A DNA stretch of 64,000 bases from Parcubacteria group bacterium (GTDB lineage Bacteria; Patescibacteriota; Minisyncoccia; Moranbacterales; GCA-2747515): assembly GCA_041660065.1 (NCBI GenBank), contig JBAZXC010000004.1:10098-74097 (forward strand), read 5' to 3'. Numbering within the stretch: the first letter of the stretch is position 1; each line of letters starts with the position of its first letter. Below, one piece after another: positions 49,444-64,000 of the stretch. A program made the translations under genes and the position numbers. Under the pieces are notes generated by a model that was given only the letters and a program-made list of their open reading frames with translations, searched no databases and had not been told where the DNA came from.

Positions 49444-49528
49444 GGTGAGGTGGCCGAGTGGTTGAAGGCGCACGCTTGGAAAGCGTGTTAGGGGCAACTC
49501 TACGCAGGTTCGAATCCTGTCCTCACCG
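49444..49528 (+). tRNA. tRNA-Ser (anticodon GGA)
   Basis: Cloverleaf: acceptor GGTGAGG/CCTCACC, anticodon loop cTTGGAAa, long variable arm, T-loop GGTTCGAATCC; no encoded CCA. Confidence 0.8.
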
Positions 49529-49530
49529 CC

Positions 49531-49640
49531 CTGTACCGTACGGTACAGGGCTCCGCCAGAAATAAAAAACGGAGTCAAATATCGTACGAAAAAACAGTCC
49601 TACGCCATACGATACAGGACTGTTTTTGTATGGGGAAGAA
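49531..49640. repeat. cassette-boundary repeat, partial (central hairpin CCCTGTACCGTACGGTACAGGG + right arm)
   Basis: Lies immediately 3' of tRNA-Ser(GGA); shares the hairpin and a CTGTTTTTGTATGGGGAAGAATAGACGTTGAAATTTTTTTG arm with the repeats at 55931, 56861, 58450 and 62503. Confidence 0.6.
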
Positions 49641-49725
49641 TAGACGTTGAAATTTTTTTGCTGTGAATTATGATAGACAATTCACTTAAATATGCTACGA
49701 TGAGCTTACAAATTAATGGTTTTTC

Positions 49726-50715
49726 ATGTCTATGAAACCGATCATGCAGGTGAAAAATTTGACTAAGGAATTTGTCTTTCCGGTGAAACAACAGTCGGCA
49801 GGATGGTTCAAAAACTTCGTTGCACCACAAAAACGTACGGTTGTCGCTGTGGACGATGTGTCTTTTAGTGTTGGTGCGGGAGAGCGGATCGCTTTTATCG
49901 GTCCAAATGGCGCAGGGAAGTCCACGACGATCAAAATGCTTACCGGTATTTTGCATCCGACCAGCGGATCGATCGATGTGTTGGGTTTTGATCCGGCACG
50001 CGACCGCAAAAAATTGGCGTATCAGATCGGTACCGTCTTTGGACAGCGATCGCAACTTTTGCCCAATTTACCGCTTACGGACTCGTTGGAATTTTTTGGT
50101 GTGATGTATGATCTGACGGACAAACAGATTGCAGAGCGCATCGCAGAACTTGTGGAACTTTTTGGTCTTCAAAAATTTATGGACCAGCCTGTGCGCAAAT
50201 TGTCTCTCGGTCAGCGTATGCGCGGGGAAGTTGCGGCATCACTGATGCATCGACCGCGGATCATTCTCTTGGATGAGCCGACGATCGGATTGGATGTGGT
50301 TGCAAAGAAGCGATTGCGAGAATTATTGTTGCGCATCAATGCGGAGCAAGGCACGACGATCTTTTTGACATCGCATGATGTGGGAGATATCGAGCTCTTG
50401 TGTGATCGCACGATCGTGATCCATCATGGCGCGATCATCAAAGATTTGCCGACGAAGGAATTGGCGCATACATTCGTTTTTGAAAAATACATCGATCTCA
50501 TCCCGCAGGAAACCTTTCGCCATTTTCCCGCGTTGCCACAGGGCGTGCGATATCTCGTGGAGGACAAAGATAAAATTTCTATTGTTGTAGATATCAGTGT
50601 GATCAGTGTGACGCATGCGCTGACAAAAGTTCTGGCACTTTTTGATGTGCAGGATGTTGATGTTTATGATGCAGATCTGGAAACTGTGATCCGACATATT
50701 TATGAAAAAGCTTAG
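49726..50715 (+). CDS. ABC transporter ATP-binding protein
   Basis: 329 aa; Walker [10 protein letters not shown], signature LSLGQRMR, Walker [12 protein letters not shown]. Confidence 0.8.
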
Positions 50716-51502
50716 ACTCGCGCACAAGATCATCACAACGCTCATCAAAGATCAATGGTATTATCGCGGTCGTGTGATTGCGGATATGATGTTGATGTTT
50801 GTCCGATGCGGGGTGTTGCTTGTGTTGTATGCATATGTATTCCGTCTCAAAAACGGTGTGATCAACGACACGACGTTTGGAGTTGTGGCGTGGAGTATTT
50901 TTTTCTATTTTGCTTTTATCACATTGCGTTTGCGCGAGATCACACGCATGATCATGCAAGATGTGCGCAGTGGTACTGTGGAAACACTCTTTGCCAAACC
51001 AGTGTCATATATCTTTTACCGTGTGATGTGGCAATTGGGCAGCGGGATCAGTTCGTTTGTGATTGTGAGCGTGTGTGGTAGCGCACTACTGATCTGGTGG
51101 GTCGGCATACCGGAAACGATGACGATCGGTATTTTCCTCCCGACACTTTTTGCAGTTTTTTGTGGCGCGATCATATTGACGCTGACACTGTATGCGATCG
51201 TCGGATTTATGGCGTTTTGGATCGAAGATGTGAATCCGATCTTCTGGCTCGTGGATAAAATTGTCATGGTGTTGGGTGGCTCCTATTTGCCGGTCGCACT
51301 TTTCCCGCCTCTCCTGTACAAGGTTGCCGTGTGGAGTCCTTTTGGCGCAGCGAGTTTTATCACACACACAGTGAATGTCTCATGGCAAGAAAAATGGCCG
51401 ATGCTTGTCGGGATCCAAATAATGTGGATTGGCATTGGTCTCGTGGTGTTATATGTGATCAATCATTACGCGCACAAGAGAGTATCGATCAATGGCGGAT
51501 AA
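50702..51502 (+). CDS. ABC-2 family transporter permease
   Basis: 266 aa, 6 TM; overlaps the upstream ATPase gene by 14 nt. Confidence 0.65.
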
Positions 51503-51507
51503 AATAT

Positions 51508-52302
51508 ATGATGAATGACTTGCGATTTGCATTGTATGCGATCAAAAAAAATATTGCGAATAGTACGGAGTTGCGCACAAGTTTTGCGCTCACCGTTTTG
51601 GGTATGGCGATCAATAACGTGTCATTTCTCGTAATTTGGATTTTCTTCATACAGTCTGTGGGAGAGATCAACGGATGGCGTGCAATTGATATCCTCGCTC
51701 TGGATGGCTTTGTGGCACTGTCATATGGGATCACATTTTCGATCTTTGTCGGCATCAAATTATTACCACAATATGTCGCAGACGGTGTCTTTGACCGCTT
51801 CTTGCTCTCGCCAAAAAATGTACTTCTGCGTGTGGCAACATCGGCATTTCACGCCTCAGCCGTGGGTGATTTTGTATTTGGCGTGGCGTGCTTTGGTATC
51901 TATGCATGGGTTGTGGATATACATATCACACAATTGATGATCCTATTTCTCTTGACGATCAATGCGACGGTGATGTTTTTTGTCGTGAGTGTTTTGATCT
52001 ATTCTGCGAGTTTTTATTTTACTGATGCGTATTCTGTGACATATAGTCTCTTTGACCTCTTCATGACGCCGACACTTTTTCATGGAGGGTTATTTCATGG
52101 GACGATGCGTTTTATCTTTACATTCCTTATCCCGTCACTCGTGATCGGAGCATTGCCGACAGAAATTCTCGCATCCGTGTCAGTCGTACACATGCTTGTA
52201 TTGATGGGTATTACGGCTGTATGGTTTGCGGGAGCGATGTGGTTTTTTCGCCACTCGATCAAACGGTATGAAAGTGCCAATTTCATGACATTTGGGAGGT
52301 AA
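51508..52302 (+). CDS. ABC-2 family transporter permease (second subunit)
   Basis: In-frame ATGATG at 51508 just after the upstream stop, so the 51331 start in the ORF track is probably too long; 6 TM. Confidence 0.6.
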   Translation: MMNDLRFALYAIKKNIANSTELRTSFALTVLGMAINNVSFLVIWIFFIQSVGEINGWRAIDILALDGFVALSYGITFSIFVGIKLLPQYVADGVFDRFLLSPKNVLLRVATSAFHASAVGDFVFGVACFGIYAWVVDIHITQLMILFLLTINATVMFFVVSVLIYSASFYFTDAYSVTYSLFDLFMTPTLFHGGLFHGTMRFIFTFLIPSLVIGALPTEILASVSVVHMLVLMGITAVWFAGAMWFFRHSIKRYESANFMTFGR

Positions 52303-52602
52303 AAAGACAATTTTTCATTATTGTGCTACTATAGTCGGTATTATGAATATGCAAGATGACAAAGAAAAAAAGGAACAGGACCATCCTGATCATGATGAAT
52401 TTGGTGAGAGCATAAATGATTTGCGACCAGAAGAGGAAAAGCCCACGTATGCCGAGGGTGATGCAAAATCCAAAGAGCTCGTCAAAAAGATCACACGCAC
52501 AAGTTAGAAAAATAAGTGAATATTGGCCAGCCCAAGGCTGGTCCCTGCCTACCGGCAGGCGCCTCGGGAGGAAGCGGTTAACATGAACAAATAATTAAAT
52601 AT

Positions 52603-52694
52603 TGGAGAGGTGCCAGAGTGGTCGAATGGGACTGACTCGAAATCAGTTGTCTCGTTTTAACGGGACCCAGGGTTCGAATCCCTGCCTCTCCGCC
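52603..52694 (+). tRNA. tRNA-Ser (anticodon CGA)
   Basis: Acceptor GGAGAGG/CCTCTCC, anticodon loop aCTCGAAa, long variable arm, T-loop GGTTCGAATCC, encoded CCA. Confidence 0.75.
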
Positions 52695-52702
52695 AACAAG
52701 AA

Positions 52703-52750
52703 ATCTTATTATCATGCAAATGATAGTGGGATTTTTTGATTGGAGAAGGG
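52703..52750. repeat. about 46-bp direct repeat, copy 1 (AATCTTATTATCATGCAAATGATAGTGGGATTTTTTGATTGGAGAAGG)
   Basis: Near-identical to 63252-63297 (AATCCTATTATCATGTAAATGACAATGGGATTTTTTGATTGGAGATG); the two copies bracket about 10.5 kb of accessory genes next to tRNA-Ser(CGA). Confidence 0.6.
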
Positions 52751-52868
52751 AGGGATTCGAACATGGAAAGGGGTCGGGAAAACGATAGTTTCCCCGTGGT
52801 GGAAGTATTGAAACCGCAAGGTGTCAAAGAGCGAAGCGACGTGAGATTCCCTGCCTCTCCGCAAATAA
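52743..52868. other. tRNA-like fragment / att-type duplication of tRNA-Ser 3' end
   Basis: GGAGAAGGGAGGGATTCGAAC resembles the reverse complement of a tRNA T-arm and acceptor stem, and GAGATTCCCTGCCTCTCCGCA repeats the 3' end of tRNA-Ser(CGA); it does not fold as a complete canonical tRNA by eye. Confidence 0.4.
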
Positions 52869-53055: not shown

Positions 53056-54132
53056 TTATTCCAATGGAAGCATTTTTAGTGTCTGCAAAGATTTGCTTTT
53101 GGAAACGATACCAAGTTTTTTGAGAAACAGCATCAAGATTGAGCTTGTTAGAAAAATAAGAACAACTGGCGTTCGAACTGCTGCAAGCAAATCCCAAATG
53201 GCACTAAGAGTTCCTGATTTGCCATAGAAAGGCCAGCCGATGATGATGCACATTGCCATGAACATCCCTGCGATTTTACTGTTTTTCTCACTAAATCCGA
53301 TTTTTTCGGATATAAAATTAAGTCCAGAAACACCCGAATCAATTGAACTTACGGCAAGTGAAATCATTAGAATAAGAAACATGATTCCAAGATAGAGATT
53401 ATCGTTGAAATAAAATGCGACAATCATAACAAAAAACATGTAAATTGCAAACCATGCACATGCCCACATTCCAGTAGGAATCATTCTTTCTTCTTTGATT
53501 GCTGAGAGTTTTTGATGGTGGTGAGCGTGGGTGAGTGAGCCAATGATGATGCCTGAGAAATTGAATAGCGCAATCATCTTCCAGTCAACGCCTTTTGATA
53601 GGACGATATTATTCATAGTGCCGTCATTTGTTACAAATGCAGTTATTGCCATTGCAATGATAGCTGTTATCTGACCTATATAGGCTCCAATATCAGTTAT
53701 CATTAGAAATCGAAGTCCTCCAAATTTTACATAGAAAATTGTAATAGATGCAAATGCTACAATCAGCCATGTTGCTGTTTCTTTACTCACAAAGACATAT
53801 GTGGCAAATTTTTCATGACCTCCGGTAAGTGCTACCATCAATCCTTTCATATTTATGTTGATGGTGAGAAATGCTAGGAATGTAAAAAGTAGTAGCATCG
53901 GAATATAGTTCCCCCAGTTTTTACTGGAAGGAACATGTCGTCGAATAAATGCGGTGAGTGGGATAGCCAGACAATTGCCCACAATCCATGCAATTGCAGG
54001 AAGAAATCCTTCTGCATACATTTTGGACATTCCAACCACAATGGAAAAGCCCCAAGACCAATCAGCTGCCAGAGACATTCCTACACGCCAATTAGGAAAA
54101 TTTTCGATGTCATCAATATTCACGTTTCTCAT
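53056..54132 (-). CDS. polytopic membrane transporter (about 12 TM), family uncertain
   Basis: 358 aa, the only minus-strand gene in the accessory array; hydrophobic throughout; HAHHHQ loop. Confidence 0.55.
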   Translation of the reverse strand: MRNVNIDDIENFPNWRVGMSLAADWSWGFSIVVGMSKMYAEGFLPAIAWIVGNCLAIPLTAFIRRHVPSSKNWGNYIPMLLLFTFLAFLTININMKGLMVALTGGHEKFATYVFVSKETATWLIVAFASITIFYVKFGGLRFLMITDIGAYIGQITAIIAMAITAFVTNDGTMNNIVLSKGVDWKMIALFNFSGIIIGSLTHAHHHQKLSAIKEERMIPTGMWACAWFAIYMFFVMIVAFYFNDNLYLGIMFLILMISLAVSSIDSGVSGLNFISEKIGFSEKNSKIAGMFMAMCIIIGWPFYGKSGTLSAIWDLLAAVRTPVVLIFLTSSILMLFLKKLGIVSKSKSLQTLKMLPLE

Positions 54133-54389
54133 GATTCACTCCTTATCTTCTGAGGTTGGTTCAAATTTTAAAAGTACACTAAAATAAAATTAATGATCTC
54201 TATGCAAAGATCAGTTCAATATTGCATATTTTTGATAAATTGTCAAGAGAATAAGTTGTTGTGGATGTTGACAAAGTTTATTTATTATGATATTAATTAA
54301 CATTCGAGTTCCTTAACAAAAAGAGCTTGAGTTTTGATGGGGGAGGCACATTTCTATTCAGTGGATTTAAAAACTATTGAGCGCATAAA

Positions 54390-55748
54390 GTGAAGGAGGT
54401 TGATTTCATGAAAACATGTTTAGATTTTAAGAGAGCGTTGGTGGAGAGTGGCCTGATGGATTTTGCAGAGGAAACATCCTTGGCAGTTTGGTTGGGTGAC
54501 GGCATGAAGATGCTTCGAATTTTGGAGAGAAAGATTATAGAGCTTTTTGAACTGCAGGGTTATGAAGAGGGACGTTTCCCGCTCTTAGCTCACAGAAGTC
54601 ATTTCAACAAGCTTTGTATGGAAATTTGCAATTTTGATGGAGGTGTTTTTTGCATTGAAGGAAAAAGTGACTTACTTCTGCGACCCTCTGGTGAAATTGT
54701 GTTTTATCCTCTTTTTGCAAAGTGGTCAAAAAAAAGAGGTCTTCCTCTAAGGTTTTTTTCCATTGGACAAATGTTTCGTCAAGGATCTGCTCAAAAGATA
54801 TTTCGTCAGTGTGAGAATGATATGTTTGTAGAAGGACATGCCTCATTTAAAAATGCAGGAGAGGCGCATATTGAAGTAGATCGTCTTAATGATATTTTGA
54901 GGAGTTGGTTTTCCATTCTTTCACTTCCAGTCTTGATCGTGGACCGTCCAGGTGAAACAAATAAGCCTGTGGCAGAAAGGCACATTGGTTTTGATGGCAT
55001 TTTGCCAACGGGGGAGACCATTCTTCTTGGCGCCTCGTATTATCAAGGACAAATTTTTTCTCGTGTCTTTAATATTAAAAATCGAGACACTGCAGATTTT
55101 GCATATCAGGCGGAAGCAGGATTTTCATCCAGAGCGATCCTAGCATCTCTATGGGTGCATGCGGACAAAAAAGGATTGGTATTGCCGAGTAGTTTTGCTC
55201 CTATTCAAGTGGCAATCATTCCTAGCAGTAAAGATGCTGGCATGCTTTTGCAGGCAGAGAAAATAAAAAAAGATCTCAATGTGGCTGGAATTCGAGTAAG
55301 GATTCAAATCCCAGAACGAAATAAAAGAGTCTTTTATCAGAATTTGGAGATATCCGGCTATCCGGTAGTAATTCGATTGAATGAAACAGACACTTGTCAA
55401 GTTTACTATCGTTTTGATGATCGATGTGATAGTGATCCAAAAAATCTTTTATTGGAAGTGAGTGAATACTTGAAAAATTTGGACGGCAGAATTCTGAGAA
55501 AAGCAGTGGATGCTCATATTTCCAAGATGATTTTTGTTTGCGAAGATGCAAGAATAATCATTGATGTCCTTAATAGTCAAAAAGTAGCTCAGATATTCCT
55601 CTGTAGTGAATCTACCTGTTTGCATGGAGTTAAAACCAGCGTTGGTCGAGGTGAGATGATTGGTTGGGATTATTCTAGTCAAGAGCGGGGTGCGTGTATT
55701 CAATGCGGAAAGGAAGGTAGACGTGCATATTATGCTAGAAGAATCTAG
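54390..55748 (+). CDS. archaeal/eukaryote-type prolyl-tRNA synthetase homolog with substituted motif 2
   Basis: 452 aa colinear with class IIa ProRS: LLLRPSGE, motif-2 region GQMFRQGSAQKIFRQCENDMFVEGH (the canonical FRxE is altered to FRQG), motif-3-like GFSSR, anticodon-binding domain APIQVAIIPS, and a C-terminal Zn motif CIQCGKEGRRAYYARRI. Confidence 0.65.
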   Translation: MKEVDFMKTCLDFKRALVESGLMDFAEETSLAVWLGDGMKMLRILERKIIELFELQGYEEGRFPLLAHRSHFNKLCMEICNFDGGVFCIEGKSDLLLRPSGEIVFYPLFAKWSKKRGLPLRFFSIGQMFRQGSAQKIFRQCENDMFVEGHASFKNAGEAHIEVDRLNDILRSWFSILSLPVLIVDRPGETNKPVAERHIGFDGILPTGETILLGASYYQGQIFSRVFNIKNRDTADFAYQAEAGFSSRAILASLWVHADKKGLVLPSSFAPIQVAIIPSSKDAGMLLQAEKIKKDLNVAGIRVRIQIPERNKRVFYQNLEISGYPVVIRLNETDTCQVYYRFDDRCDSDPKNLLLEVSEYLKNLDGRILRKAVDAHISKMIFVCEDARIIIDVLNSQKVAQIFLCSESTCLHGVKTSVGRGEMIGWDYSSQERGACIQCGKEGRRAYYARRI

Positions 55749-55930
55749 ATAATAGAAATTGTTTAAATCAAAAAGCCGAGGATGAATTTCATCTGAGGCT
55801 TTTAAATTTTTTATGATGTTCTTTCGATATCCATTTTTGTTAGATATTAAGATGTTTTTTATGAAAGTCCTTCATAGTGAAAAATATTGTAGGAAAATTT
55901 CATCGTTGTTTTTGCAGGTTTTATTAATTA

Positions 55931-56037
55931 TTCATCAAAAACGTTCCAATATTGTCCCACACTCCCCGCCCTGTACCGTACGGTACAGGGCTGTTTTTGT
56001 ATAGTGGGGTATGGACGTGGAACTTTTTGTGATATTC
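55931..56037. repeat. cassette-boundary composite repeat (full copy)
   Basis: Left arm TTCATCAAAAACGTTCCAATATTGTCCCACACTCCCCG, hairpin CCCTGTACCGTACGGTACAGGG, right arm CTGTTTTTGTATAGTGGGGTATGGACGTGGAACTTTTTGTGATAT; the arms are imperfect inverted repeats of each other. Confidence 0.7.
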
Positions 56038-56059
56038 TTATTATGAAATTTAAAAATAT

Positions 56060-56860: not shown

Positions 56861-56966
56861 CTCATCAAAAACGTTCCAACATCGTCCCACACTCCCCGCC
56901 CTGTACCGTACGGTACAGGGCTGTTTTTGAATAAGGAGGTAGGGATGTGGAACTTTTTGTGATATG
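56861..56966. repeat. cassette-boundary composite repeat (full copy)
   Basis: CTCATCAAAAACGTTCCAACATCGTCCCACACTCCCCG + CCCTGTACCGTACGGTACAGGG + CTGTTTTTGAATAAGGAGGTAGGGATGTGGAACTTTTTGTGATATG. Confidence 0.7.
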
Positions 56967-57082
56967 ATAATCGTATAAATTGAAATCATTTATCTAGGAC
57001 CGTCCTAGTTATATATTTCGAGGTTTTTATTCCCTGTAGAGCGTGTATTGACACAAATACGCTCTACAGGTAAGATAGCAAT

Positions 57083-58054
57083 ATGAAAGCAACATTATCT
57101 AATTCCGATTATTTACGTAATTTTGACCGCTTTATCAGCAGTTTAGATTTTTCTGATCCTGATAATCTTCGTATTTATTCTCATCCAAAGTGGATCAATG
57201 TGCATCCTGCTGTTTTAGCTTTAATTGTAGAAATGGCGATGCGGGCAGGTAAGCAGAATGTTACGTTTGAAAATATTACAGCAACTTCCGGTTCGTATCT
57301 TGATCGTATGGGGCTTTTTGAATTCACACATCAAAAGTCACCATATACTATTAACAAGAAAGAAGAATCGGGAAGATTTATACCCGTCACGATTATCAAA
57401 AATTCTACCGAGCAGTCAAAATTTATTACTGACATGATTCCTCTTTTGCATTTACCTGCTGATAAAACGGATGCTATTAAATATACGATTGGGGAACTGC
57501 TTCGTAATGTATTGGAACACTCAGGAAGTACGCATGGAGCGATTGTTGCGGCTCAATACTATAAAAAATCAAACACAATTCGTATTGGTATTTGTGATGG
57601 CGGTATTGGTATTAAAAAGAGTCTGCAACACTATTGGGCTTCTCGGTCAAAGACAGATATAGCTGCAATCAAATGGGCAATGGTACCCGGTATTTCGGGG
57701 ACAACACGAAAAGAAGGCGGAACAGAAGATAATGCTGGTGCCGGATTATTTTTCATTAAATCTATCGCGCAAGTAGCACGTAACTATTTCATGATTTACA
57801 GTGGATCCGGTATTTATAAACTACTACTTCACGATAAGAGAATAGAGAAACCACGGCTCCATTCCGATCCGGATGACGATCGTCATTCTGAACGCGACGA
57901 CGCCCCTTATTTTCAAGGGACATTGGTGGCAATAGATTTATCCCTTGAAAATAAATCTGAATTTACCCAGCTTCTCTCTGCGATACGAGAAGTTTATGGC
58001 AAGGCGGTTAGGGATCGTAAGCGAAAGAAATATAAAGAACCAAAATTTATATGA
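57083..58054 (+). CDS. GHKL-type ATPase (HATPase_c-like) with N-terminal uncharacterised domain
   Basis: 323 aa; N-box ELLRNVLEHS and G1 box ICDGGIGI; the stop overlaps the next start (ATGA). Confidence 0.6.
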   Translation: MKATLSNSDYLRNFDRFISSLDFSDPDNLRIYSHPKWINVHPAVLALIVEMAMRAGKQNVTFENITATSGSYLDRMGLFEFTHQKSPYTINKKEESGRFIPVTIIKNSTEQSKFITDMIPLLHLPADKTDAIKYTIGELLRNVLEHSGSTHGAIVAAQYYKKSNTIRIGICDGGIGIKKSLQHYWASRSKTDIAAIKWAMVPGISGTTRKEGGTEDNAGAGLFFIKSIAQVARNYFMIYSGSGIYKLLLHDKRIEKPRLHSDPDDDRHSERDDAPYFQGTLVAIDLSLENKSEFTQLLSAIREVYGKAVRDRKRKKYKEPKFI

Positions 58055-58365
58055 GTAAAATAATTAAGATTAAGGATCTTGTCGGTGATTTTGCAGAAAA
58101 TAAAGACGTGGCAAAAGATTTACGTGTCACCGATATTATGCCGACCTTGGCAGATGGTCAGGAGGTCATATTGGATTTTTCTGGAGTTAGCGGTACAACT
58201 CAATCATTTATTCACGCCTTGATCTCTGAACCAATTCGGCGGTTTCGTGATGTAGCTTTGGAAAAGATACACTACAAAAATTGTTCTGATGTTGTAAAAG
58301 AAGTTATTAAAACGGTGTCTGAATATATGCAGGAAAGTCTTGATTCGGAAAATTATGAAAAATAA
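58051..58365 (+). CDS. STAS-like small protein (DUF4325-like partner of the GHKL ATPase)
   Basis: 104 aa; translationally coupled to the ATPase; ...EVILDFSGVSGTTQSFIHALI... resembles the STAS-like DUF4325. Confidence 0.45.
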   Translation: MSKIIKIKDLVGDFAENKDVAKDLRVTDIMPTLADGQEVILDFSGVSGTTQSFIHALISEPIRRFRDVALEKIHYKNCSDVVKEVIKTVSEYMQESLDSENYEK

Positions 58366-58449: not shown

Positions 58450-58498
58450 GGCTGTTTTTGTATAGAGAGGTAGGGACGTGTGGAACTTTTTATGATAT
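58450..58498. repeat. cassette-boundary repeat, right arm only
   Basis: GGCTGTTTTTGTATAGAGAGGTAGGGACGTGTGGAACTTTTTATGATAT. Confidence 0.6.
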
Positions 58499-58524
58499 GC
58501 TGAAAGCATATTTTATATAAATTT

Positions 58525-59196
58525 ATGTCAGCAAATATCATAAAACACTTTATTGAAACAAGAGATTTTAATTACGGATCAGTGAAAGAAAAGCTCAATG
58601 AAATCATGGATGAGCATACAAAAAAGGCGTGTGTAATGTTAAATATCAACCTTGTTAATATCATTATATGGCCAAATAGTGATGCAGTGATACCGGAAAC
58701 AGGCGAAGGTGGCCAAGTATGGTCAAAAGAACTTGTTATGATTTATATTGATCCAAGTCGTTCTGTCGCAGAACTTCAAAAGATCATTGAAACACAAATT
58801 CCAGCAACAATCTATCACGAATTAAATCATATTGCTAGGGGAAATTTTTTAAGCAAAGAAGAACTTGGTTTCCATCATAATTTATCAAAAGCAGTAATCT
58901 CAGAGGGTATCGCGTCCTATTTTGCACATGAAAAATGGTCGCAAGCTCAAATGCCATGGACAAAATACTCGGAAACAGAAATACAAGATCTTTTGAGCAT
59001 TTATTTAAGCAGAGATATTTCTGATGATGACCAATATGACCATGAAAAATGGTTTTATGGCACGGGTGATCTCCCACGATGGATCGGCTATAAATTGGGA
59101 TATTATTTCGTTGAACGTTATAAGAAACAAAATCCAAATGTTTCATGGAGCGATATTATAAAACTAAAAGATCATGAGTTCATGAAAACTGTGTAA
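58525..59196 (+). CDS. putative Zn-dependent protease (HExxH; DUF2268-like)
   Basis: 223 aa; the HELNHIARG zinc-binding motif is in a soluble protein. Confidence 0.5.
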   Translation: MSANIIKHFIETRDFNYGSVKEKLNEIMDEHTKKACVMLNINLVNIIIWPNSDAVIPETGEGGQVWSKELVMIYIDPSRSVAELQKIIETQIPATIYHELNHIARGNFLSKEELGFHHNLSKAVISEGIASYFAHEKWSQAQMPWTKYSETEIQDLLSIYLSRDISDDDQYDHEKWFYGTGDLPRWIGYKLGYYFVERYKKQNPNVSWSDIIKLKDHEFMKTV

Positions 59197-59207
59197 ATCA
59201 TATTTTT

Positions 59208-59278
59208 TCATCAAAAAAGTTCCAACGTCGTCCCACTCCTTGTAAAGGAAATCACGCAATTTACTGCGTGGTTTTTTT
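59208..59278. repeat. cassette-boundary repeat, left arm + terminator hairpin
   Basis: TTCATCAAAAAAGTTCCAACGTCGTCCCACTCC, then CACGCAatttacTGCGTGGTTTTTTT. Confidence 0.6.
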
Positions 59279-59515: not shown

Positions 59516-59926
59516 ATGAAACAGTATAGTATTTTTATAAGTCATTCATGGGCTTATGGCGAAAACTATAATAGGCTCATCAAAATGCTTAATAATGATC
59601 CCTATTTTCATTTTAAAGATTATTCTGTTCCAAAGCATGATCCCATTCATAATGCTCCAAATCAACTTCTTTTAAAGCAAGCGATTGCAAATCAAATAAG
59701 ATTTTGTGATGTCGTAATAATATTAGCGGGTGTTTATTCAACATATAGCAAGTGGATCAATATTGAAATTGACATTGCTAAGAATGGCTTTCAATATCCA
59801 AAATCTATTCTTGCAATTGAGCCTTGGGCTAGTGAAAAAACATCACAAATTGTCAAGAAAAATGCCGATAAAATAGTTAGGTGGCAAACATGTTCAATTG
59901 TTGATGCAATAAAAGGATTAGCCTAA
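59516..59926 (+). CDS. TIR-like domain protein (DUF1863/ThsB-like)
   Basis: 136 aa; YSIFISHSWAYGENY...CDVVIILAGVYSTYSKWINIEIDIA fits the bacterial TIR-like pattern (FIShS ... S.W...E); AT-rich (about 30% GC); 12 nt upstream of the next gene. Confidence 0.5.
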   Translation: MKQYSIFISHSWAYGENYNRLIKMLNNDPYFHFKDYSVPKHDPIHNAPNQLLLKQAIANQIRFCDVVIILAGVYSTYSKWINIEIDIAKNGFQYPKSILAIEPWASEKTSQIVKKNADKIVRWQTCSIVDAIKGLA

Positions 59927-59938
59927 ATCATAATCTTT

Positions 59939-60466
59939 ATGGATATTAAAAAATTGGAAGAAAAACTATTTGTTTCGAAGAATGAAAATTATGGAGATAA
60001 ATATATAGAACACTTATTGGAACAATATAAGGTTTATATTGACTCTGCAGAAAAAATAAGTGATCGTAGACAAAAATCAAATGAATTTTTTCTTGCTTTA
60101 AATAGTAGCTTGGTTGCATTATTGGGATATATACTTGCGAAAAATAGTGATTCAGAAATAGTAAGCTTGTTCATTCTATCTTCTATTTCAGGGATCGTAT
60201 TATGTTATTTTTGGTATAGAATTATTTATTCTTATAAATGTTTAAATAGTGGAAAATTCAAAGTTATTCACATGATTGAAAGACGATTACCACTAGCGCT
60301 TTATGACACAGAATGGGAAATATTGGAAAGAGGAAAAAACAAGAAAGTTTACTGGCCGTTCTCGCATATTGAGCTCATGGTCCCTTGGATATTTATTATT
60401 ATTTATATAACCATTTTATTTCTCAACCTATGTCCAAAAATAGGAGCGTTGATATGTGCAATGTAA
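59939..60466 (+). CDS. small 3-TM protein, SLATT-like candidate effector (paralog 1)
   Basis: 175 aa; an N-terminal amphipathic helix, two closely spaced TM helices (FFLALNSSLVALLGYIL / IVSLFILSSISGIVLCYFWY), a soluble loop and a C-terminal TM; overlaps the next gene by 11 nt. Confidence 0.5.
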   Translation: MDIKKLEEKLFVSKNENYGDKYIEHLLEQYKVYIDSAEKISDRRQKSNEFFLALNSSLVALLGYILAKNSDSEIVSLFILSSISGIVLCYFWYRIIYSYKCLNSGKFKVIHMIERRLPLALYDTEWEILERGKNKKVYWPFSHIELMVPWIFIIIYITILFLNLCPKIGALICAM

Positions 60467-61001
60467 ATGGAGGATAAATATGAAAAAAGAAAAAAACATA
60501 GAATTAATTTATTCTGAGGTAAAAGAGAGATTAAATAGGCAGATAGATTCCATAGATCAGGTGGCAGTTAAATTTAATTTTTTACTTGCGCTTAATAGTA
60601 TAATATTGGCTTCACTCTTACAATCTAACCTTTTAGGATCTCGAAAGGAATGTATTTCATGGATGATGTTTTTTGCAGTAGTGTGCTTTTTTTTATCAAT
60701 CCTATTTGACTTGAGAGGGCTAGTTATGCAAAAGTATAGACGAGATCCTGATCCACAAAAACTTTATGAAGGATATTTCAACAAATCAAAGCAATATACT
60801 CAAGAAGTCTTAATCATTAATTACGTGCATGCTTTCAATGAAAATGTGAAAAAATTACATCATGTTAACAAATTTTTTGCTTATTCAATATTTTCTTCCT
60901 CTATTGCTTTAATATTTGTTTTTATAAATTTAATTAATCCTAATTTAATTTTCATATGGAAAATGATAATAAAGATGATGTGTCAGATATGCCAAAGTTA
61001 G
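60456..61001 (+). CDS. small 3-TM protein, SLATT-like candidate effector (paralog 2)
   Basis: 181 aa; same architecture as the upstream gene; shared LALNS(I/S)(I/L)LAxLL motif. Confidence 0.5.
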   Translation: MQCKWRINMKKEKNIELIYSEVKERLNRQIDSIDQVAVKFNFLLALNSIILASLLQSNLLGSRKECISWMMFFAVVCFFLSILFDLRGLVMQKYRRDPDPQKLYEGYFNKSKQYTQEVLIINYVHAFNENVKKLHHVNKFFAYSIFSSSIALIFVFINLINPNLIFIWKMIIKMMCQICQS

Positions 61002-61127
61002 AAACTGAAGATGAAACGCCAAAATTTGATCCGAAACTAGTTAGCTATGAGGAAAAGGGTTATGATCCACATAGTAAAAATGTAAAGAATTTTTCGAAAA
61101 AGGACGACAGTGAATAGTTGTATATAA

Positions 61128-61598
61128 ATGACAATCCTAAAAAAATCATATTTGAAGAACAAGGATGAAGATCTGATTCATCTTCGAGCAATAAAATTTG
61201 GGATGAATTTTCCTAATGGTTTTATGTATGAACATTTTAAGAAGCGATACGAAACACATAGAGTGAATGATTGGAAAATTGTTGATGAATTTTTGCAAGA
61301 AGCATATAATAATAAAAATGGAACTTCTAACCGAATCACTCCATTTGTTTTGCTTGAGAGAGGGCCAAATGGGAACGCAGATACTTCAAAATATATATTG
61401 AGTTATGAGGCATATTTTAATTATTTGGCATATCGAAATGCAAAGAGGACTATTTGGATTGGTGTCGGAGCAATAATAGTTAGCGTAGTATTGTCTTTAT
61501 TAACTTTTATTGATAATACATATGAAGACAACAATAATAAAAAAGATGAAAGATATCACTATCAAAATATTTTCAGAGGCTCGCAAAATTGCAAATGA
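61128..61598 (+). CDS. hypothetical protein with C-terminal TM
   Basis: 156 aa; AT-rich; no motif. Confidence 0.45.
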   Translation: MTILKKSYLKNKDEDLIHLRAIKFGMNFPNGFMYEHFKKRYETHRVNDWKIVDEFLQEAYNNKNGTSNRITPFVLLERGPNGNADTSKYILSYEAYFNYLAYRNAKRTIWIGVGAIIVSVVLSLLTFIDNTYEDNNNKKDERYHYQNIFRGSQNCK

Positions 61599-61655
61599 AA
61601 AAATGAATCAAATATAGTGTTATTAATTAGAAATTTGACAGAAAATATCGTTTGT

Positions 61656-61745
61656 TATCAAAAAAGTTCCAACATCGTCCCACACTCCCCGCACAGATTT
61701 TAAGTCCAAGATAATGGGACTTTTTGATGGGGAAGTTTGTCATTT
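61656..61745. repeat. cassette-boundary composite repeat (variant)
   Basis: TATCAAAAAAGTTCCAACATCGTCCCACACTCCCCG, hairpin AAGTCCaagataatgGGACTT, then TTTTGATGGGGAAGTTTGTCAT. Confidence 0.65.
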
Positions 61746-61766
61746 TTAAACAAGGTCATATAATGA

Positions 61767-62465
61767 ATGCATAAACATAATAAGGCATGCATCATGGATA
61801 AGGCAATAGAGAAAAAACCAACTGCACTAGATGTTAAACTAAAGAAAAAACTTGACTTACTTCGACGTTATTGGTTTGCATACAAGCGAGCGCATCATGC
61901 CCTTTTAGGGGAAATTGAAGAAAACCAAATACTCTTACAGTTTCATGAGTGTAGAAAATTTAATACTTGGCAATTAAATGAGGCATTATATAGATACGCT
62001 GAATCTTCGATAAGTGCTCTATTTTGGTTGTTTCCAGATATGAAATACAAGGATTATCCTTTTGTACACAAATTCTTGAGGAAGTGGCGTAATGGAAATC
62101 AGCATGATGAACGAACGGATTTTTTTCTAAATGATGGAGGTTTTCAATATAATAATAAGAGGCATGATTTACCCTTAGGGTATAATGTGCTTCCCGTTTT
62201 CAATCTAAATAAAGAACTAAAAAAAGTTGTGAAATCACAGTTTGGTTCGGATAAAATTGCAACGGATGCAACAGTGGTGGAATTGGTTAAAAATCATCAT
62301 ATATTTATGGTTAAAAAATTTAATGAATATGAAGCAAATCTAAATAAAGAATTGCCAAAGAAATATTTGCAATCAATTGTGCAGGAACACATGACGATGT
62401 ATGGGGGAGTGCATGATGAGTTTGTTTCGGAAGATGATTTTTGGAAAGGAGAAATTAATAAATAA
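61767..62465 (+). CDS. hypothetical protein
   Basis: 232 aa, soluble and basic; no motif. Confidence 0.45.
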   Translation: MHKHNKACIMDKAIEKKPTALDVKLKKKLDLLRRYWFAYKRAHHALLGEIEENQILLQFHECRKFNTWQLNEALYRYAESSISALFWLFPDMKYKDYPFVHKFLRKWRNGNQHDERTDFFLNDGGFQYNNKRHDLPLGYNVLPVFNLNKELKKVVKSQFGSDKIATDATVVELVKNHHIFMVKKFNEYEANLNKELPKKYLQSIVQEHMTMYGGVHDEFVSEDDFWKGEINK

Positions 62466-62502
62466 TAATCATTTTACTTTTGATAAAATGATACTGTTTT
62501 AT

Positions 62503-62628
62503 TCATCAAAAAAGTTATAACATCATCCCACACTCTCCACCAGTTGCTTGCGAAGAAGATTTAGAACAGCTCGTTTTTACGGGCTGTTTTTGTATGGGGA
62601 GATAGAGATGTTGATTTTTTTGTGATAC
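62503..62628. repeat. cassette-boundary composite repeat (full copy, divergent hairpin)
   Basis: TTCATCAAAAAAGTTATAACATCATCCCACACTCTCC, variable hairpin region ...CAGCTCGTTTTTACGGGCTG, then TTTTTGTATGGGGAGATAGAGATGTTGATTTTTTTGTGATAC. Confidence 0.65.
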
Positions 62629-62665
62629 AGTTAAAATAATAGTTAATTTTATTAACGTAAACCAT

Positions 62666-63175
62666 ATGAAAAAAATAATATACTTTTTTATTGCTGGATT
62701 TATAATTGGACTGCTAATTTCTCCTGTAGCTGGAATGGCAAATAGCGTTACGAGGAACTTGATTTTGGGGATGGCTTCTGATGTAACTATTTTGGCAATG
62801 GCGGATAAAGTTAACGATAACAAAAATTCAGATGAGCAACTTAATACAAAGATATCGGATCTTCAATCTATTGTTGATAATCAGAAAACAGAACTTGCAA
62901 ATTGTCAGCAGCAAATAGATTTACAGAGTGCAAAAATAGAGGAATCAGATTTGAAAAACGAAGGAACGCAAATTAAAATAAATAATGAAGTCGAATGTAG
63001 AAAATTGTATTCAGATAATCAAGAATGTAACACGCCGTCTTTTAGGAGTGAATTAGATTTTAATAGAATGATTGAGTCATACAAAGAGGGAATGCCAGAT
63101 AAATGGAAATCTTATAGGGATGAAAAGCTTATTGTATTTAAAAAGTGTCAAGAAATTATTAAAGAATGCGGATAA
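62666..63175 (+). CDS. secreted/membrane-anchored coiled-coil protein, hypothetical
   Basis: 169 aa; signal anchor, Gln/Asn-rich coiled-coil, 4 Cys at the C-terminus. Confidence 0.45.
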   Translation: MKKIIYFFIAGFIIGLLISPVAGMANSVTRNLILGMASDVTILAMADKVNDNKNSDEQLNTKISDLQSIVDNQKTELANCQQQIDLQSAKIEESDLKNEGTQIKINNEVECRKLYSDNQECNTPSFRSELDFNRMIESYKEGMPDKWKSYRDEKLIVFKKCQEIIKECG

Positions 63176-63180
63176 TAAAC

Positions 63181-63297
63181 CAAAAAATCTCCACCATCGT
63201 CATGTATCATGCGATGCATGACGCAGTCTCACACTCCCCGCTAACAGAAAATCCTATTATCATGTAAATGACAATGGGATTTTTTGATTGGAGATGA
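63181..63297. repeat. cassette-boundary composite repeat (variant) overlapping copy 2 of the 46-bp direct repeat
   Basis: ...CCACCATCGTCatgtatcatgcgatgcatGACgcagtCTCACACTCCCCG ... AATCCTATTATCATGTAAATGACAATGGGATTTTTTGATTGGAGATG. Confidence 0.6.
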
Positions 63298-63521
63298 ATA
63301 TAATGGCTTTTTGTACTATACTTAGTCTAAGTAATATGTATAAAATATTGATTATGGAAAAGATCAGGGTGGAACAACATGGATTCACTGCTTTTTCGTG
63401 GTTTGCCGGATGGCTTTTTACTATTGGATTTCTCCAGCTGACATTTTGGAAGGGCGTGTTGGCAATTTTGTTATGGCCATACTATATCGGCGTGGCGATC
63501 AGTCATGTGCTCGTTCAGTAA
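63288..63521 (+). CDS. small 2-TM membrane protein, hypothetical
   Basis: 77 aa with two hydrophobic helices. Confidence 0.35.
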   Translation: MEMNIMAFCTILSLSNMYKILIMEKIRVEQHGFTAFSWFAGWLFTIGFLQLTFWKGVLAILLWPYYIGVAISHVLVQ

Positions 63522-64000
63522 ATTTGTGCAAGATTATATACATTGCACATACATACTAAATTACAGAAAAAGCATCGTTCGCATGTAATAAAAAACTGCA
63601 CAACCTTGATAGGTGGTGCAGTTGGGAAGAGTGTCCTGGCAAAAGTCAGGTCATGCTATGACCGGATCATTGTCCGTTCGAGACGTGGGATGGATGACCT
63701 TTTTGGTCTGGGGGATTCATTATTAGGTTTTTCATGTACAAACAGTTGATGCCCAGACCTCTTTTAACTGCAATCTCTTTGATTTCACAGTTTTTGCCAT
63801 CCGGGCAGGTTTCACATTTGTGGAGCGATTCTTTTTCAGTGGTTGTCATGTCGTCCTACTCCTCTTGTGGATTATTTTTAAAAAACATCAATACTGATGT
63901 ATGCATTTTGACGCTTTATGCTAACATAATTATTATTGGTCGTCAAAATTGTTGAAAACAGCACGTGCGAAATCATTTTATGGTATGCTGGTCATGGAGT

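Follow-up and report, generated by a model that had tools for sequence, protein, structure and literature searches.

The segment from 52.7 to 63.3 kb of the window (the whole 64-kb stretch of DNA analyzed, from a Parcubacteria-group bacterium of the Patescibacteria or candidate phyla radiation [CPR]) is probably a genomic island of small cassettes accreted at the 3' end of tRNA-Ser(CGA), in which the terminal left (L) arm of each cassette is an attP-type half-site of a CPR-wide family of large serine recombinases (LSRs). The island spans 10.5 kb, with tRNA-Ser(CGA) as its anchor. Behind this gene lie seven units, mostly single-gene, separated by a composite repeat with the order L arm, terminator hairpin, right (R) arm. 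The features, from left to right, are as follows.

49443-49531, plus: tRNA-Ser(GGA) (ARAGORN; Rfam tRNA, 61.5 bits)
49529-49667, plus: stretch 3' of tRNA-Ser(GGA), with a palindromic terminator, two more hairpins and R arm copy A
49726-52302, plus: ABC-2 transporter operon of three genes (NCBIfam/Pfam), core-like and outside the cassette array
52604-52695, plus: tRNA-Ser(CGA) (ARAGORN), the putative attB/attL side of the island
52696-52868, plus: stretch 3' of tRNA-Ser(CGA), with a terminator hairpin, an R-like inverted copy, about 80 nt, and a direct partial copy
53056-55748, mixed: unit 1, a multi-pass membrane protein (53056-54132, minus) and a ProRS-like paralogue (54390-55748, plus)
55931-56040, plus: junction B, L arm core 55943-55960 with tail and GC to 55969, terminator 55968-55991, R arm 55990-56040
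56060-56854, plus: unit 2, Amidohydro_2 protein (Pfam, 6.2e-23)
56861-56971, plus: junction C, L arm core 56873-56890 with 0 mismatches, terminator identical to that of tRNA-Ser(GGA), R arm
57083-58365, plus: unit 3, GHKL ATPase (HATPase_c) and DUF4325 (STAS-like) pair (Pfam)
58451-58503, plus: junction D, R arm alone (nhmmer, E=2e-12), unit 3 having no L arm after it
58525-59196, plus: unit 4, DUF2268 predicted Zn protease (Pfam, 2.4e-27)
59208-59278, plus: junction E, L arm core 59219-59236 with one mismatch and a divergent tail, different terminator 59245-59278, no R arm
59516-61598, plus: unit 5, ThsB-like TIR, 8xMP membrane protein, PycTM-like protein and a 156-aa unknown (Pfam and PADLOC)
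61656-61764, plus: junction F, L arm core 61666-61683 with 0 mismatches, different hairpin, degenerate R arm
61767-62465, plus: unit 6, ORF for a 232-aa protein
62503-62633, plus: junction G, L arm variant with three mismatches, different and longer terminator, R arm
62666-63175, plus: unit 7, ORF for a 169-aa protein with a hydrophobic N-terminal segment
63181-63294, plus: junction H, right end of the island, degenerate L arm interrupted by a 23-nt hairpin, tail ACTCCCCGC, copy of the tRNA-Ser(CGA) terminator

GC content is 30-37% over the interval 54-63.3 kb, down from about 42%, and returns to about 42% beyond junction H, in agreement with an earlier reading of the sequence alone that described the cargo as AT-rich. 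The same-strand bias noted there also holds, every unit being on the plus strand save one gene (53056-54132). GC skew is positive over the entire window, however, and part of this bias is therefore probably ordinary leading-strand bias. Profile searches returned the cargo families proposed earlier (ProRS-like, Amidohydro_2, HATPase_c with DUF4325, DUF2268, and ThsB-TIR with 8xMP and PycTM-like). The ProRS-like protein of unit 1 matches Pfam tRNA-synt_2b and scores 188.7 bits against the ProRS family, compared with a cutoff of 437. Homologues of the unit 2 protein in Moranbacteria (72% identical) have ordinary neighborhoods with neither a tRNA nor L arms, and unit 3 has a weak PADLOC match to the DrmA region. 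Unit 5 looks like a defense-like module, judging from its predicted domains, and the proteins of units 6 and 7 have no match in Pfam or PADLOC. The ABC-2 operon has counterparts of 67-79% amino acid identity, in the same order, directly upstream of tRNA-Ser(CGA) in a “Ca. Moraniibacteriota” locus (L013).

The composite repeat is far above chance expectation, with five copies of each arm: a repeat-family search of the window placed L arms at 55928, 56858, 59204, 61651, and 62499, R arms at 49617, 55988, 56918, 58449, and 62581, and the hairpin CCCTGTACCGTACGGTACAGGG at 49529, 55969, and 56899. The L-arm core is GTTCCAAC(ATC/TAC)GTCCCAC, followed by a 7-nt acceptor-like tail and GC; the cassette-terminal L arm thus reads GTTCCAACATCGTCCCAC, 7-nt acceptor-stem-like tail, GC. 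The exact L-arm pattern occurs three times at ≤3 mismatches (0.00 expected by chance) and the R-arm start five times (0.3 expected), and a sensitive nhmmer model found no copy of the composite in positions 1-49000 of the window. Several of the copies reported earlier need qualification. The positions near 58450 and 59208 are indeed an R arm alone and an L arm alone, but the copy at 49531 has an R arm without an L arm, that at 61656 has an L arm with a degenerate R arm, and that at 63181 has a degenerate, hairpin-interrupted L arm followed by a copy of the sequence after tRNA-Ser(CGA).

Both tRNA-Ser genes, at the sites given in the sequence-only reading, share sequence with the junctions. The 3' end of tRNA-Ser(GGA) occupies the place that the L arm has in other junctions; its terminator is a perfect 22-nt palindrome (49529-49550), identical to the hairpins of junctions B and C, and R arm copy A follows after the two extra hairpins at 49620-49667 (repeat family start, 49617; nhmmer, E=1.6e-10). 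The last 10 nt of tRNA-Ser(CGA) and the 51 nt 3' of the gene recur at the right end of the island, 63234-63294 being 87% identical over 61 nt to 52686-52746. The array of tRNA-Ser(CGA) thus contains the exact terminator of tRNA-Ser(GGA) in junctions B and C and that of tRNA-Ser(CGA) in junction H. The R-like copy at 52736-52762 is a near-exact inverted tRNA 3' end (20/21 positions match the reverse complement) and cofolds with the tRNA-Ser(CGA) end and terminator (z = -6.9); part of the tRNA 3' end is also repeated in direct orientation at 52845-52868 (88% identical).

Arrays of L arms recur elsewhere. The L-arm pattern, for which chance matches are estimated at well below 1 per collection, gave 13 hits in species-representative genomes and 27 in metagenomes, with 85 arms in 40 loci. 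In all 20 loci with at least two arms, every arm is on one strand, the median arm-to-arm spacing is 849 nt, and 76 of the 85 arms lie ≤400 nt 3' of an ORF stop (median, 27.5 nt). Arrays start at a tRNA-Ser, tRNA-Gln, or tRNA-Asp gene in the same orientation, and the tail of the L arm matches the type of the anchoring tRNA (..CTCYCCGC, ..GCCAGC, and ..GGYCCGC). The terminator 3' of the arm is a copy of that 3' of the tRNA, with 35 identical nucleotides in locus L021. Related genomes with the same anchor differ in cassette content, and one cassette, 96.5% identical, follows a reverse transcriptase (RT) cassette in locus L035 and a NUDIX cassette in locus L026, with breakpoints at the L arm. In this pair, the tail-plus-terminator segment moves independently of the cassettes on both sides, so that a single crossover point is an insufficient explanation. 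Metagenome-assembled genomes labeled Gammaproteobacteria, Micavibrio, and Bdellovibrionales (30-38% GC) may be binning errors, and spread beyond the Patescibacteria is therefore not established.

Seven related loci link the L arm to an LSR. There, the arm lies at the distal end of a 5- to 9-kb element or at a junction inside it; the first gene of the element encodes an LSR convergent on the tRNA, with a rolling-circle Rep gene next. In locus L008, the LSR (539 aa; domains Resolvase, Recombinase, and Zn_ribbon_recom) is convergent on the anchoring tRNA-Ser with an antisense overlap, next come a Rep gene (PF23343) and cargo, and the L arm is at the far end; loci L005, L042, L045, and L048 share this layout. 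On contig CAYMGT010000009.1 (loci L007 and L008), the order is tRNA-Ser, an element running from LSR and Rep to RT and ending in an L arm, a cassette X with its L arm, a Fic cassette with its L arm, and core genes. In loci L036 and L050, the L arm directly adjoins the LSR 3' end (a P-O-P' junction). The attL sequence CCGC|ACTGATRAAAAATCGCTTTTAT is conserved. Named LSR homologues are almost all from Patescibacteria, and nearly all of the C termini read end in ..RDSNP.., the antisense translation of the tRNA T arm. The GTTCGAA-to-GC distance is 20 nt in the tRNAs, compared with a GTTCCAA-to-GC distance of 25 nt in all L arms, the T-loop-like motif of the arm being shifted 5 bp outward relative to the tRNA 3' end. 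This shift equals the published difference between the sites of serine integrases, in which the zinc-ribbon-domain motif is 5 bp closer to the center in attB than in attP (Rutherford et al. 2013, PMC3783163). The L arm thus looks like a mimic of the tRNA 3' end with attP-type spacing rather than an attC arm. The attP rebuilt from the LSR elements has little dyad symmetry, and neither a right half-site motif nor a crossover dinucleotide was identified in it.

We propose that the L arm is the attP-type left half-site of a CPR-wide, tRNA-targeting LSR family and imitates an attB-type half-site at the tRNA 3' end. The LSR would pair the tRNA end with an L arm and exchange strands within the tail or directly 3' of it, leading to insertion, excision, or reshuffling of units with a terminator/R-arm module at the 5' end and an L arm at the 3' end. 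Each L arm is followed by a copy of a tRNA-Ser terminator and, in the lineage of the window only, by an inverted tRNA-end-like R arm, whose gene-proximal end may serve as an extended -10-like promoter of the following cassette. The R arm itself is left unexplained by the LSR model. The window yielded no recombinase of any type, as noted earlier, and an LSR encoded elsewhere in the genome or on a visiting element would have to act in trans, unless the array is now frozen. Most other arrays also lack a recombinase and would likewise need one acting in trans; that an LSR lies next to the tRNA in only about 1 of 16 arrays with a visible tRNA-proximal end counts against the model.

Alternatively, the units may be frozen relics of full-length LSR-Rep elements that integrated successively and then lost their recombinase and replication genes, with order changing by homologous recombination only and without mobilization in trans. 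A 55-aa LSR remnant immediately 3' of the L arm in locus L036 indicates that LSR deletion does occur, junctions in the window are decayed (D without an L arm, E without an R arm, F and H degenerate), and the double breakpoints of L026/L035 fit homologous recombination between conserved modules. Canonical LSR rules also bar attP x attL reactions (PMC3783163). Canonical serine integrases recombine attP with attB only. Under the LSR model, further insertions at a tRNA already in use, or exchanges of one L-arm site with another, would require either site rules as relaxed as those of Ccr or homologous recombination. Nevertheless, relics are unlikely: tblastn found LSR/Rep traces in only 4 of the 40 array loci and none in the window, so that the arrays are not simply decayed LSR elements, and the units consist cleanly of a single gene with a promoter-like module. 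Furthermore, most copies of the 18-nt L-arm core are perfect or nearly so, despite unrelated cassette bodies and a variable tail and terminator next to the core, whereas a relic would decay at the rate of its flanks.

A purely regulatory module, kept for expression as a terminator-promoter unit or RNA stability/processing hairpin with no role in recombination, is improbable. The central hairpins score as intrinsic terminators, R arms end on their gene-proximal side in TGnTATGAT-like extended -10 boxes 20-40 nt upstream of start codons, and junction F has a sigma-70-like match (TTGTCA, 16-nt spacer, TATAAT; 61737-61764). However, regulation alone does not account for L arms that form the distal ends of LSR elements or abut LSR genes, for the match of tail to tRNA type, or for the approximately 45 other genes of the window without the composite. 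Because the terminator separates the upstream L arm from the downstream R arm, a transcript would seldom contain both. The terminator and the R arm, which by its sequence may carry the promoter for the next cassette, could have a regulatory function as well; this is compatible with cassette accretion by an LSR and not a true rival to it.

Transposition is a highly improbable source of the arrays, either as mobile insertion cassettes with R and L as terminal inverted repeats (GGGG start, Tn3-like) moved by a DDE transposase in trans or as a 110-bp terminator-targeting miniature element (MITE). The arms are inverted repeats facing each gene, and the conserved cassette of L026/L035 extends from its promoter module as far as the L arm, with the tail and terminator as a separate spacer. 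Nevertheless, target site duplications are absent, no locus contains a transposase, the L arm is universal while most lineages lack the R arm, and the arms mimic tRNA ends and are tied to tRNA anchors. Dispersed MITE or REP elements, raised earlier as a possible refutation, do not fit either, as the other 49 kb of the window has no copy and in the 40 other loci the repeats are confined to same-strand arrays just 3' of ORFs.

The integron-like label given earlier is close to refuted. In a true integron or CALIN, the composite repeats would be noncanonical attC sites, recombined as folded single strands by a tyrosine recombinase of the IntI type whose gene lies beyond the window. Features that recall one are the single gene per repeat, the arrays on one strand, and the conserved arms around a variable center. 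The long bulged hairpin suggested earlier, with the L arm paired to the R arm and the terminator at the tip, is also obtained by folding the three full copies (B, 55931-56040; C, 56861-56971; G, 62503-62633), with z scores of -4.1 to -6.1 as RNA and -3.0 to -6.1 as bottom-strand DNA, and its L arm has 4-5 extra bases relative to the R arm. The R arm, an inverted tRNA-end-like sequence, is restricted to the window and L013, however, and the hairpin, missing with it from all other arrays, cannot be a general recombination substrate. The R''/R' consensus is unmatched, as already recognized (TTCCAAC versus RYYYAAC; GTGGAAC versus GTTRRRY), phmmer with an approximate XerD query found no tyrosine recombinase in the window or 48 related loci, the sole recombinase found beside arrays is a serine recombinase, and arrays start at tRNA genes whose type the arm tail tracks.

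The sequence-only reading was right that discrete units, most of them with one gene, form an array anchored at a tRNA and that each has a terminal repeat resembling a recombination site, an arrangement for which “tandem island” was the best of its terms; its proposed comparison of related genomes revealed differing cassette content at the same anchor. Unlike attC sites, the repeats resemble the attachment sites of a tRNA-targeting LSR family. The nearest analogues of the cassette island include SCC composite islands and tycheposons, and integrons are analogous by function only.

Composite repeats close to the tRNA-Ser genes, proposed from the sequence-only reading, were confirmed by a repeat finder, and exact matches to the left (L) and right (R) arm patterns exceeded chance expectation (three and five found versus 0.00 and 0.3 expected). 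The two arms are imperfect inverted repeats, and of junctions A to H (in window order), the three that are complete, B, C, and G, each fold as a long hairpin with the terminator at its tip. The anchoring genes and repeat components are as follows.

49443-49531, tRNA-Ser(GGA) (ARAGORN)
52604-52695, tRNA-Ser(CGA) (ARAGORN)
55928, 56858, 59204, 61651, and 62499, L arm, five copies (repeat finder)
49617, 55988, 56918, 58449, and 62581, R arm, five copies (repeat finder)
49529-49550, 55969-55990, and 56899-56920, terminator hairpin CCCTGTACCGTACGGTACAGGG, a perfect 22-nt palindrome, three copies, the first immediately 3' of tRNA-Ser(GGA) (repeat finder); also in L051

The repeat assigned to 49531 is present, with the tRNA end replacing the L arm; that assigned to 63181 has an L arm, but a degenerate one, followed by a copy of the sequence after tRNA-Ser(CGA). 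The resulting 61-nt direct repeat (52686-52746 and 63234-63294; 87% identical; repeat family D6) bounds a 10.5-kb island at 52.7-63.3 kb. The island has the attributes of a tRNA-anchored genomic island: it starts at a tRNA 3' end, closes with a direct repeat of that end, and deviates in GC content, which falls from ~42% to 30-37% across 54-63.3 kb. The greater AT richness attributed to the cargo relative to its flanks was thus borne out, and the cargo annotations agreed with those first given. Units 2, 4, 6, and 7 are single ORFs. The same-strand bias is real, but GC skew is positive over the entire window, and part of the bias is therefore probably ordinary leading-strand bias. A three-gene ABC operon lying between the two tRNA genes is 67-79% identical to, and in the same order as, the genes immediately 5' of tRNA-Ser(CGA) in L013, a “Ca. 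Moraniibacteriota” contig in which the genes 3' of this tRNA differ from those of the window. The operon is core-like, and the array proper begins at tRNA-Ser(CGA). The locus varies between relatives, as cassettes differ at the same anchor. The amidohydrolase protein of the array is 100% identical to one from a Parcubacteria group bacterium, which, with the L013 match, places the window in Patescibacteria (candidate phyla radiation [CPR]).

The L-arm pattern AAAAAMGTTCCAAYRTYGTCCCAC, for which one scan each is reported, matched 13 loci in species-representative genomes and 27 loci in metagenomes and had no match in viral contigs. Allowing ≤3 mismatches to the 18-nt core of the arm, 85 L arms were counted over 40 loci. 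Each of the 20 loci with at least two arms carries them all on one strand, the median spacing is 849 nt, and 76 of the 85 arms lie ≤400 nt (median, 27.5 nt) 3' of the stop codon of a same-strand ORF; the longest array (L015) contains 8 arms in 8.5 kb. Every array with a visible start begins at a same-orientation tRNA gene, for tRNA-Ser, tRNA-Gln, or tRNA-Asp. The 7 nt after the core (the tail) resemble the 3' acceptor strand of the anchoring tRNA type (..CTCYCCGC, ..GCCAGC, or ..GGYCCGC), and the terminator after the tail resembles that after the tRNA (35 nt identical in L021). Cargo of the related arrays includes Fic/RhuM proteins, reverse transcriptases (RT), NUDIX proteins, AAA_14/DUF4143 proteins, a restriction enzyme, peptidases, and metabolic enzymes. 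The array system is therefore more widespread than the window alone shows; a literature search of incomplete coverage, which leaves earlier work possible, found no prior description of such arrays in Patescibacteria.

Several contigs are labeled as Gammaproteobacteria, Micavibrio, or Bdellovibrionales metagenome-assembled genomes (L003, L004, L005, L007/L008, L011, and L012; GC content, 30-38%). Several of them share arm, recombinase, or replication initiator types with Patescibacteria, and the recombinase of L008 is 76% identical to a Patescibacteria protein. Either these genomes were misbinned or the system has spread across phyla.

The interpretation as an integron-like platform had been drawn from an arrangement that holds in the window and over the 85 arms of the 40 loci, i.e., mostly single-ORF units in one orientation. 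It fails on the absence of IntI and of R boxes; the foldable site is confined to one lineage. A phmmer search with an approximate XerD query found no tyrosine recombinase in the ORFs of the window, where the absence of IntI had been noted, or in 48 related loci. Phage_integrase is also absent from Pfam scans of 81 and 50 ORFs (for the 81-ORF scan, among the 25 most frequent families listed). The mismatch to the attC consensus (R'', RYYYAAC; R', GTTRRRY) was upheld, the L arm reading TTCCAAC, whose first base is not R, and the R arm GTGGAAC, GTTGATT, or GTTGAAA. Junctions B, C, and G fold as hairpins at z scores of -3 to -6, with 4-5 extra nt in the L arm; D, E, F, and H do not, and arrays of other lineages have no R arm at all. 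Rfam passed only the two tRNAs at its gathering threshold and gave nothing meaningful on the repeats at an E value of ≤10 over 49-64 kb. Dispersed MITE or REP elements do not fit: a sensitive nhmmer model found no copy at window positions 1-49000, and in the loci examined outside the window, every copy belongs to an array behind a tRNA or lies 3' of an ORF. Tn3-like GGGG terminal repeats, or a mobile insertion cassette, were rejected, as there are no target duplications and no transposase and the R arm is lineage restricted.

The window has no gene for a large serine recombinase (LSR) with Resolvase, Recombinase, and zinc ribbon domains, and the LSR 3'-end sequence ACTGATAAAAAATCGC is absent from it. 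LSR genes are present in the related loci L005, L008, L042, L045, L048, and L050, with a remnant in L036. In L008, a 539-aa LSR (Resolvase, Recombinase, and Zn_ribbon_recom domains) lies beside the anchoring tRNA-Ser, its ORF convergent on the tRNA gene and antisense through it, and is followed by genes for a PF23343 rolling-circle initiator (Rep), a GIY-YIG protein, and a reverse transcriptase, with an L arm at the far end. The same LSR and Rep occur in L005. The contig containing L007 and L008 (CAYMGT010000009.1) reads as tRNA-Ser, an LSR-Rep-...-RT unit, a unit X, and a Fic unit, each of the three closed by an L arm, and then core genes. A homologue search retrieved >3,300 of 8,000 scored candidate proteins at an E value of ≤1e-20, and the named homologues are almost all from Patescibacteria. 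Nearly all of 28 homologues read end in ..SDF(L/S)SVRRxRDSNP.., the antisense reading of a tRNA T arm, and most of the family members examined therefore abut a tRNA.

The contexts of three homologues (L042, L045, and L048) are elements of 5-9 kb that comprise LSR, Rep, cargo, and an L-arm variant with the tail CTCTCCGC and a terminator; tRNA-Ser precedes the LSR gene in L042 and L045, and the L048 contig stops within that gene. An attL sequence, CCGC/ACTGATRAAAAATCGCTTTTAT (the slash marking the division), is conserved. Hybrid attL and attR sites, tRNA..CCGC/ACTGATRAAAAATCGC on one side of the integrated element and L arm-tail-terminator on the other, are seen in L008, L042, L045, and L048 (in L048, the L-arm side alone) but not in the cassettes of the window. 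In L036 and L050, the L arm immediately abuts the 3' end of the LSR gene, the junction expected of an intact attP or of a tandem insertion. A more distant LSR (L047; 52% identity) has no L arm nearby. PF23343 Rep genes (REP_ORF2-G2P, RepSA-like) were located as follows.

L005, 1127-1918, beside LSR
L008, 5057-5893, beside LSR
L042, 8113-9057, beside LSR
L045, 8958-9845, beside LSR
L048, 8009-8752, beside LSR
L050, 3290-4189, beside LSR
L011, 7282-7986, no adjacent LSR

Of the LSR loci with an L arm, all six that are complete thus have an adjoining Rep gene, which stands alone in L011, and the LSR-Rep loci look like small integrative, self-replicating elements of Patescibacteria. Two further LSR-like matches were discarded, a fragment in L004 being only the antisense translation of a partial tRNA and a weak tblastn match in L034 being CTP synthase.

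The LSR ORFs of L008 (6055-7674) and of its homologues (P0002-P0119) run antisense through the anchoring tRNA, with annotated C termini of ..RDSNP... In the excised (attP) form, the antisense strand of the L arm would instead supply the end of this ORF (..VRGEWDDVGTFFR, then a stop codon). Integration would therefore change the C terminus of the recombinase, a possible integration-dependent switch.

The resemblance of the L arm to an attP half-site is a sequence-level argument from spacing. Toward the tail, the anchoring tRNAs read GTTCGAATCCCnnnnnnnnnnn-GC, with GTTCGAA 20 nt before GC, and the L arms read GTTCCAACATCGTCCCACnnnnnnn-GC, with GTTCCAA 25 nt before GC in all of them. Both have a T-loop-like motif, TCCC, and an acceptor-like tail, and each L arm has the motif exactly 5 bp farther out than the tRNA does. 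In the A118/LI integrase, a 9-bp motif for the zinc ribbon domain lies at positions 16-24 of attP half-sites versus 11-19 of attB, and the same shift has been proposed for other serine integrases (Rutherford et al. 2013, PMC3783163). With the crossover set at tRNA positions 71-72, the motif would fall at 17-24 in the L arm and 12-19 in the tRNA, i.e., a shared outer motif 5 bp farther out in the L arm, as described for attP in PMC3783163. By spacing, therefore, the L arm looks like an attP-type half-site and the tRNA end like an attB-type one. Crossover candidates are tRNA positions 71-75, where GC is palindromic and CC or CA is not conserved across all anchors. The L arm was rejected as a genuine T arm or minihelix, since no T stem can form.

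The R arm was found solely in the window and L013 and is an inverted sequence resembling the tRNA-Ser 3' end. An R-like copy at 52736-52762 matches the reverse complement of the tRNA-Ser(CGA) end at 20 of 21 positions, and L018 has the same inverted arrangement. The anchor in these lineages consists of tRNA end, terminator, and inverted tRNA end and folds at a z score of -6.9; the composite repeat reproduces this layout, with the L arm substituting for the tRNA end. Spacing in the R arm exceeds the tRNA type by 1-3 nt and falls short of the L type by 2-4 nt, which places it nearer the former. Its gene-proximal end, TGnTATGAT or TGTGATAT, lies 20-40 nt before start codons and resembles an extended -10 box in sequence; a generic promoter scan showed no enrichment. 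The R arm may thus be native sequence from downstream of the tRNA, carried with the cassettes and serving as a putative promoter. As an attP right half-site, it was rejected, given its distance of 30-50 nt from the tail, its intermediate spacing, and its absence from LSR elements.

After the anchoring tRNA and terminator, several loci (window 52736-52868; L004 3100-3250; L009; L018; L030) have an inverted copy of the tRNA 3' end, ~80-130 nt of unrelated sequence, and a direct partial copy of that end. Segment 52736-52868 gave no tRNA call by ARAGORN and no Rfam family, and such a segment may be the scar of an almost wholly deleted element. The 120-nt segment after tRNA-Ser(CGA) was rejected as a minus-strand or intron-containing tRNA: although its acceptor strands pair, it lacks both a T arm and a D arm, and neither ARAGORN nor Rfam reports it. 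Logan contigs retrieved by exact match to window proteins were short ones only (5,984 and 944 nt). The 944-nt public assembly contig, from the same sample, starts and ends within the 22-nt palindromic terminator, so the repeat breaks short-read assemblies of the island; it was rejected as evidence of a circle, because de Bruijn assemblers stop in this way at repeats.

As judged from sequence comparison, the repeats are probably att sites of this LSR family, and the region would be an island of tandem accretion. The arrays are not mainly decayed full elements, as tblastn with seven LSR and six Rep proteins found no trace in the window and left just 4 of the 40 array loci with any. The 18-nt core is better conserved than the cassette bodies (97% versus 74% identity in one Fic pair) and than the adjoining tail and terminator. 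A cassette shared by L035 and L026 (96.5% identical) comes after an RT cassette in the former and after a NUDIX cassette in the latter, and tRNA-Asp arrays of related genomes hold different cassettes between conserved flanks. Junctions B and C, in the tRNA-Ser(CGA) array, bear the exact 22-nt terminator of tRNA-Ser(GGA). In Moranbacteria, the amidohydrolase gene carried by the island is part of the ordinary chromosome and has no L arms, which suggests its capture as a cassette. Against mobility of cassettes, attP × attL recombination is not a reaction of canonical serine integrases (PMC3783163), the window has no LSR, and several junctions in its array are decayed. In L026 and L035, moreover, the tail-plus-terminator segment moves with neither adjoining cassette, which implies two breakpoints or homologous recombination between conserved modules. 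A cassette platform active in trans is accordingly possible, if somewhat doubtful.

It is possible, though less likely than not, that Patescibacteria have a serine-recombinase counterpart of the integron, with the LSR in cis or in trans capturing, stacking, and reshuffling single-gene cassettes. The 3' end of tRNA-Ser, tRNA-Gln, or tRNA-Asp would be the fixed primary site and the conserved 25-27-nt tRNA-end mimic with attP spacing the cassette site; cassettes would bring their own promoters and include copies of chromosomal genes, e.g., the amidohydrolase. The label integron-like should be replaced by “large-serine-recombinase, tRNA-anchored cassette island.”

Among the cargo of the island, a 452-aa ProRS-like protein (54390-55748) scores 188.7 bits versus a ProRS family cutoff of 437 and is a divergent aminoacyl-tRNA synthetase paralogue. 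One unit (59516-61001) encodes a ThsB-like TIR protein, an 8xMP octameric membrane protein, and a PycTM-like protein, a compact candidate defense module with parts known from Thoeris and Pycsar. In three Moranbacteria loci (L052-L054), the region downstream of ArgRS (~14.4-17.4 kb in L052 coordinates) holds a run of small toxin-antitoxin-like genes (AbiEii-like, NTP_transf_2 plus HEPN, and small methyltransferases); having no L arm or tRNA, it represents another type of variable region.

Little has been mapped of the mobile elements of CPR bacteria, whose genomes are tiny, or of the ways in which they acquire genes. If the proposed relationships hold, GTTCCAAC(ATC/TAC)GTCCCAC followed by seven bases and GC would flag a variable, defense-rich part of many CPR genomes and tie it to a specific, abundant recombinase family. 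A natural serine integrase with an attP half-site that copies its tRNA target at a 5-bp shift would be a clean test case for the zinc ribbon domain spacing model of directionality, and the family could supply integrases with tRNA-defined targets. Stacking of single-gene cassettes by a serine recombinase would be a second, independent solution to the integron's problem.

In composite islands of the staphylococcal cassette chromosome (SCC), Ccr large serine recombinases insert elements at the 3' end of one conserved gene, rlmH, and tandem arrays form in which several units lack a recombinase and short direct repeats of the integration site mark the unit boundaries. SCC cargo includes antiphage defenses (PMC11470126). 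A serine recombinase, a single conserved target, and tandem units often without a recombinase are shared, whereas the target here is tRNA-Ser, -Gln, or -Asp, the units are mostly single genes (0.5-2.5 kb versus 10-60 kb), the LSR is paired with a rolling-circle Rep gene, and the hosts are Patescibacteria. Because the target is not rlmH, the island is not of the SCC type and resembles it in its tandem, partly recombinase-less layout alone.

According to 10.1101/2020.12.28.424599, tycheposon islands of Prochlorococcus are tRNA seeded, with successive integrations displacing older elements outward and with partial-tRNA repeats and degraded elements scattered throughout. Tycheposons bring together cargo, a replication module, and a site-specific integrase, in some cases a large serine recombinase, although 910 of 937 elements of this type use tyrosine recombinases. 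Seeding at tRNAs, successive insertion, an integrase with a replication module, and remnants are common to both, but the repeats there are true partial tRNAs rather than a 5-bp-shifted mimic, and a term search of that paper found no regular recombinase-less arrays of single-gene cassettes with one conserved 3' site.

With A118/LI, Bxb1, and phiC31, the system shares an outer motif present in both att partners and displaced by 5 bp (PMC3783163), together with the Resolvase, Recombinase, and zinc ribbon domains. It differs from serine integrases in that neither clear dyad symmetry nor a motif for the right half-site was found, the 3' end of the recombinase gene and attP overlap, and sites form multicopy arrays, which would not be expected from strictly unidirectional attP × attB chemistry.

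Integrons likewise have single-ORF cassettes, each with a conserved 3' site, in one orientation beside a fixed primary site, as well as diverse cargo, often related to defense or toxins, and recombinase-less arrays (CALIN). Here, however, the recombinase is a serine rather than a tyrosine recombinase, a tRNA 3' end serves as primary site, the cassette sites appear to be double-strand half-site tRNA mimics rather than folded attC hairpins, and the cassettes appear to carry their own promoter-like module.
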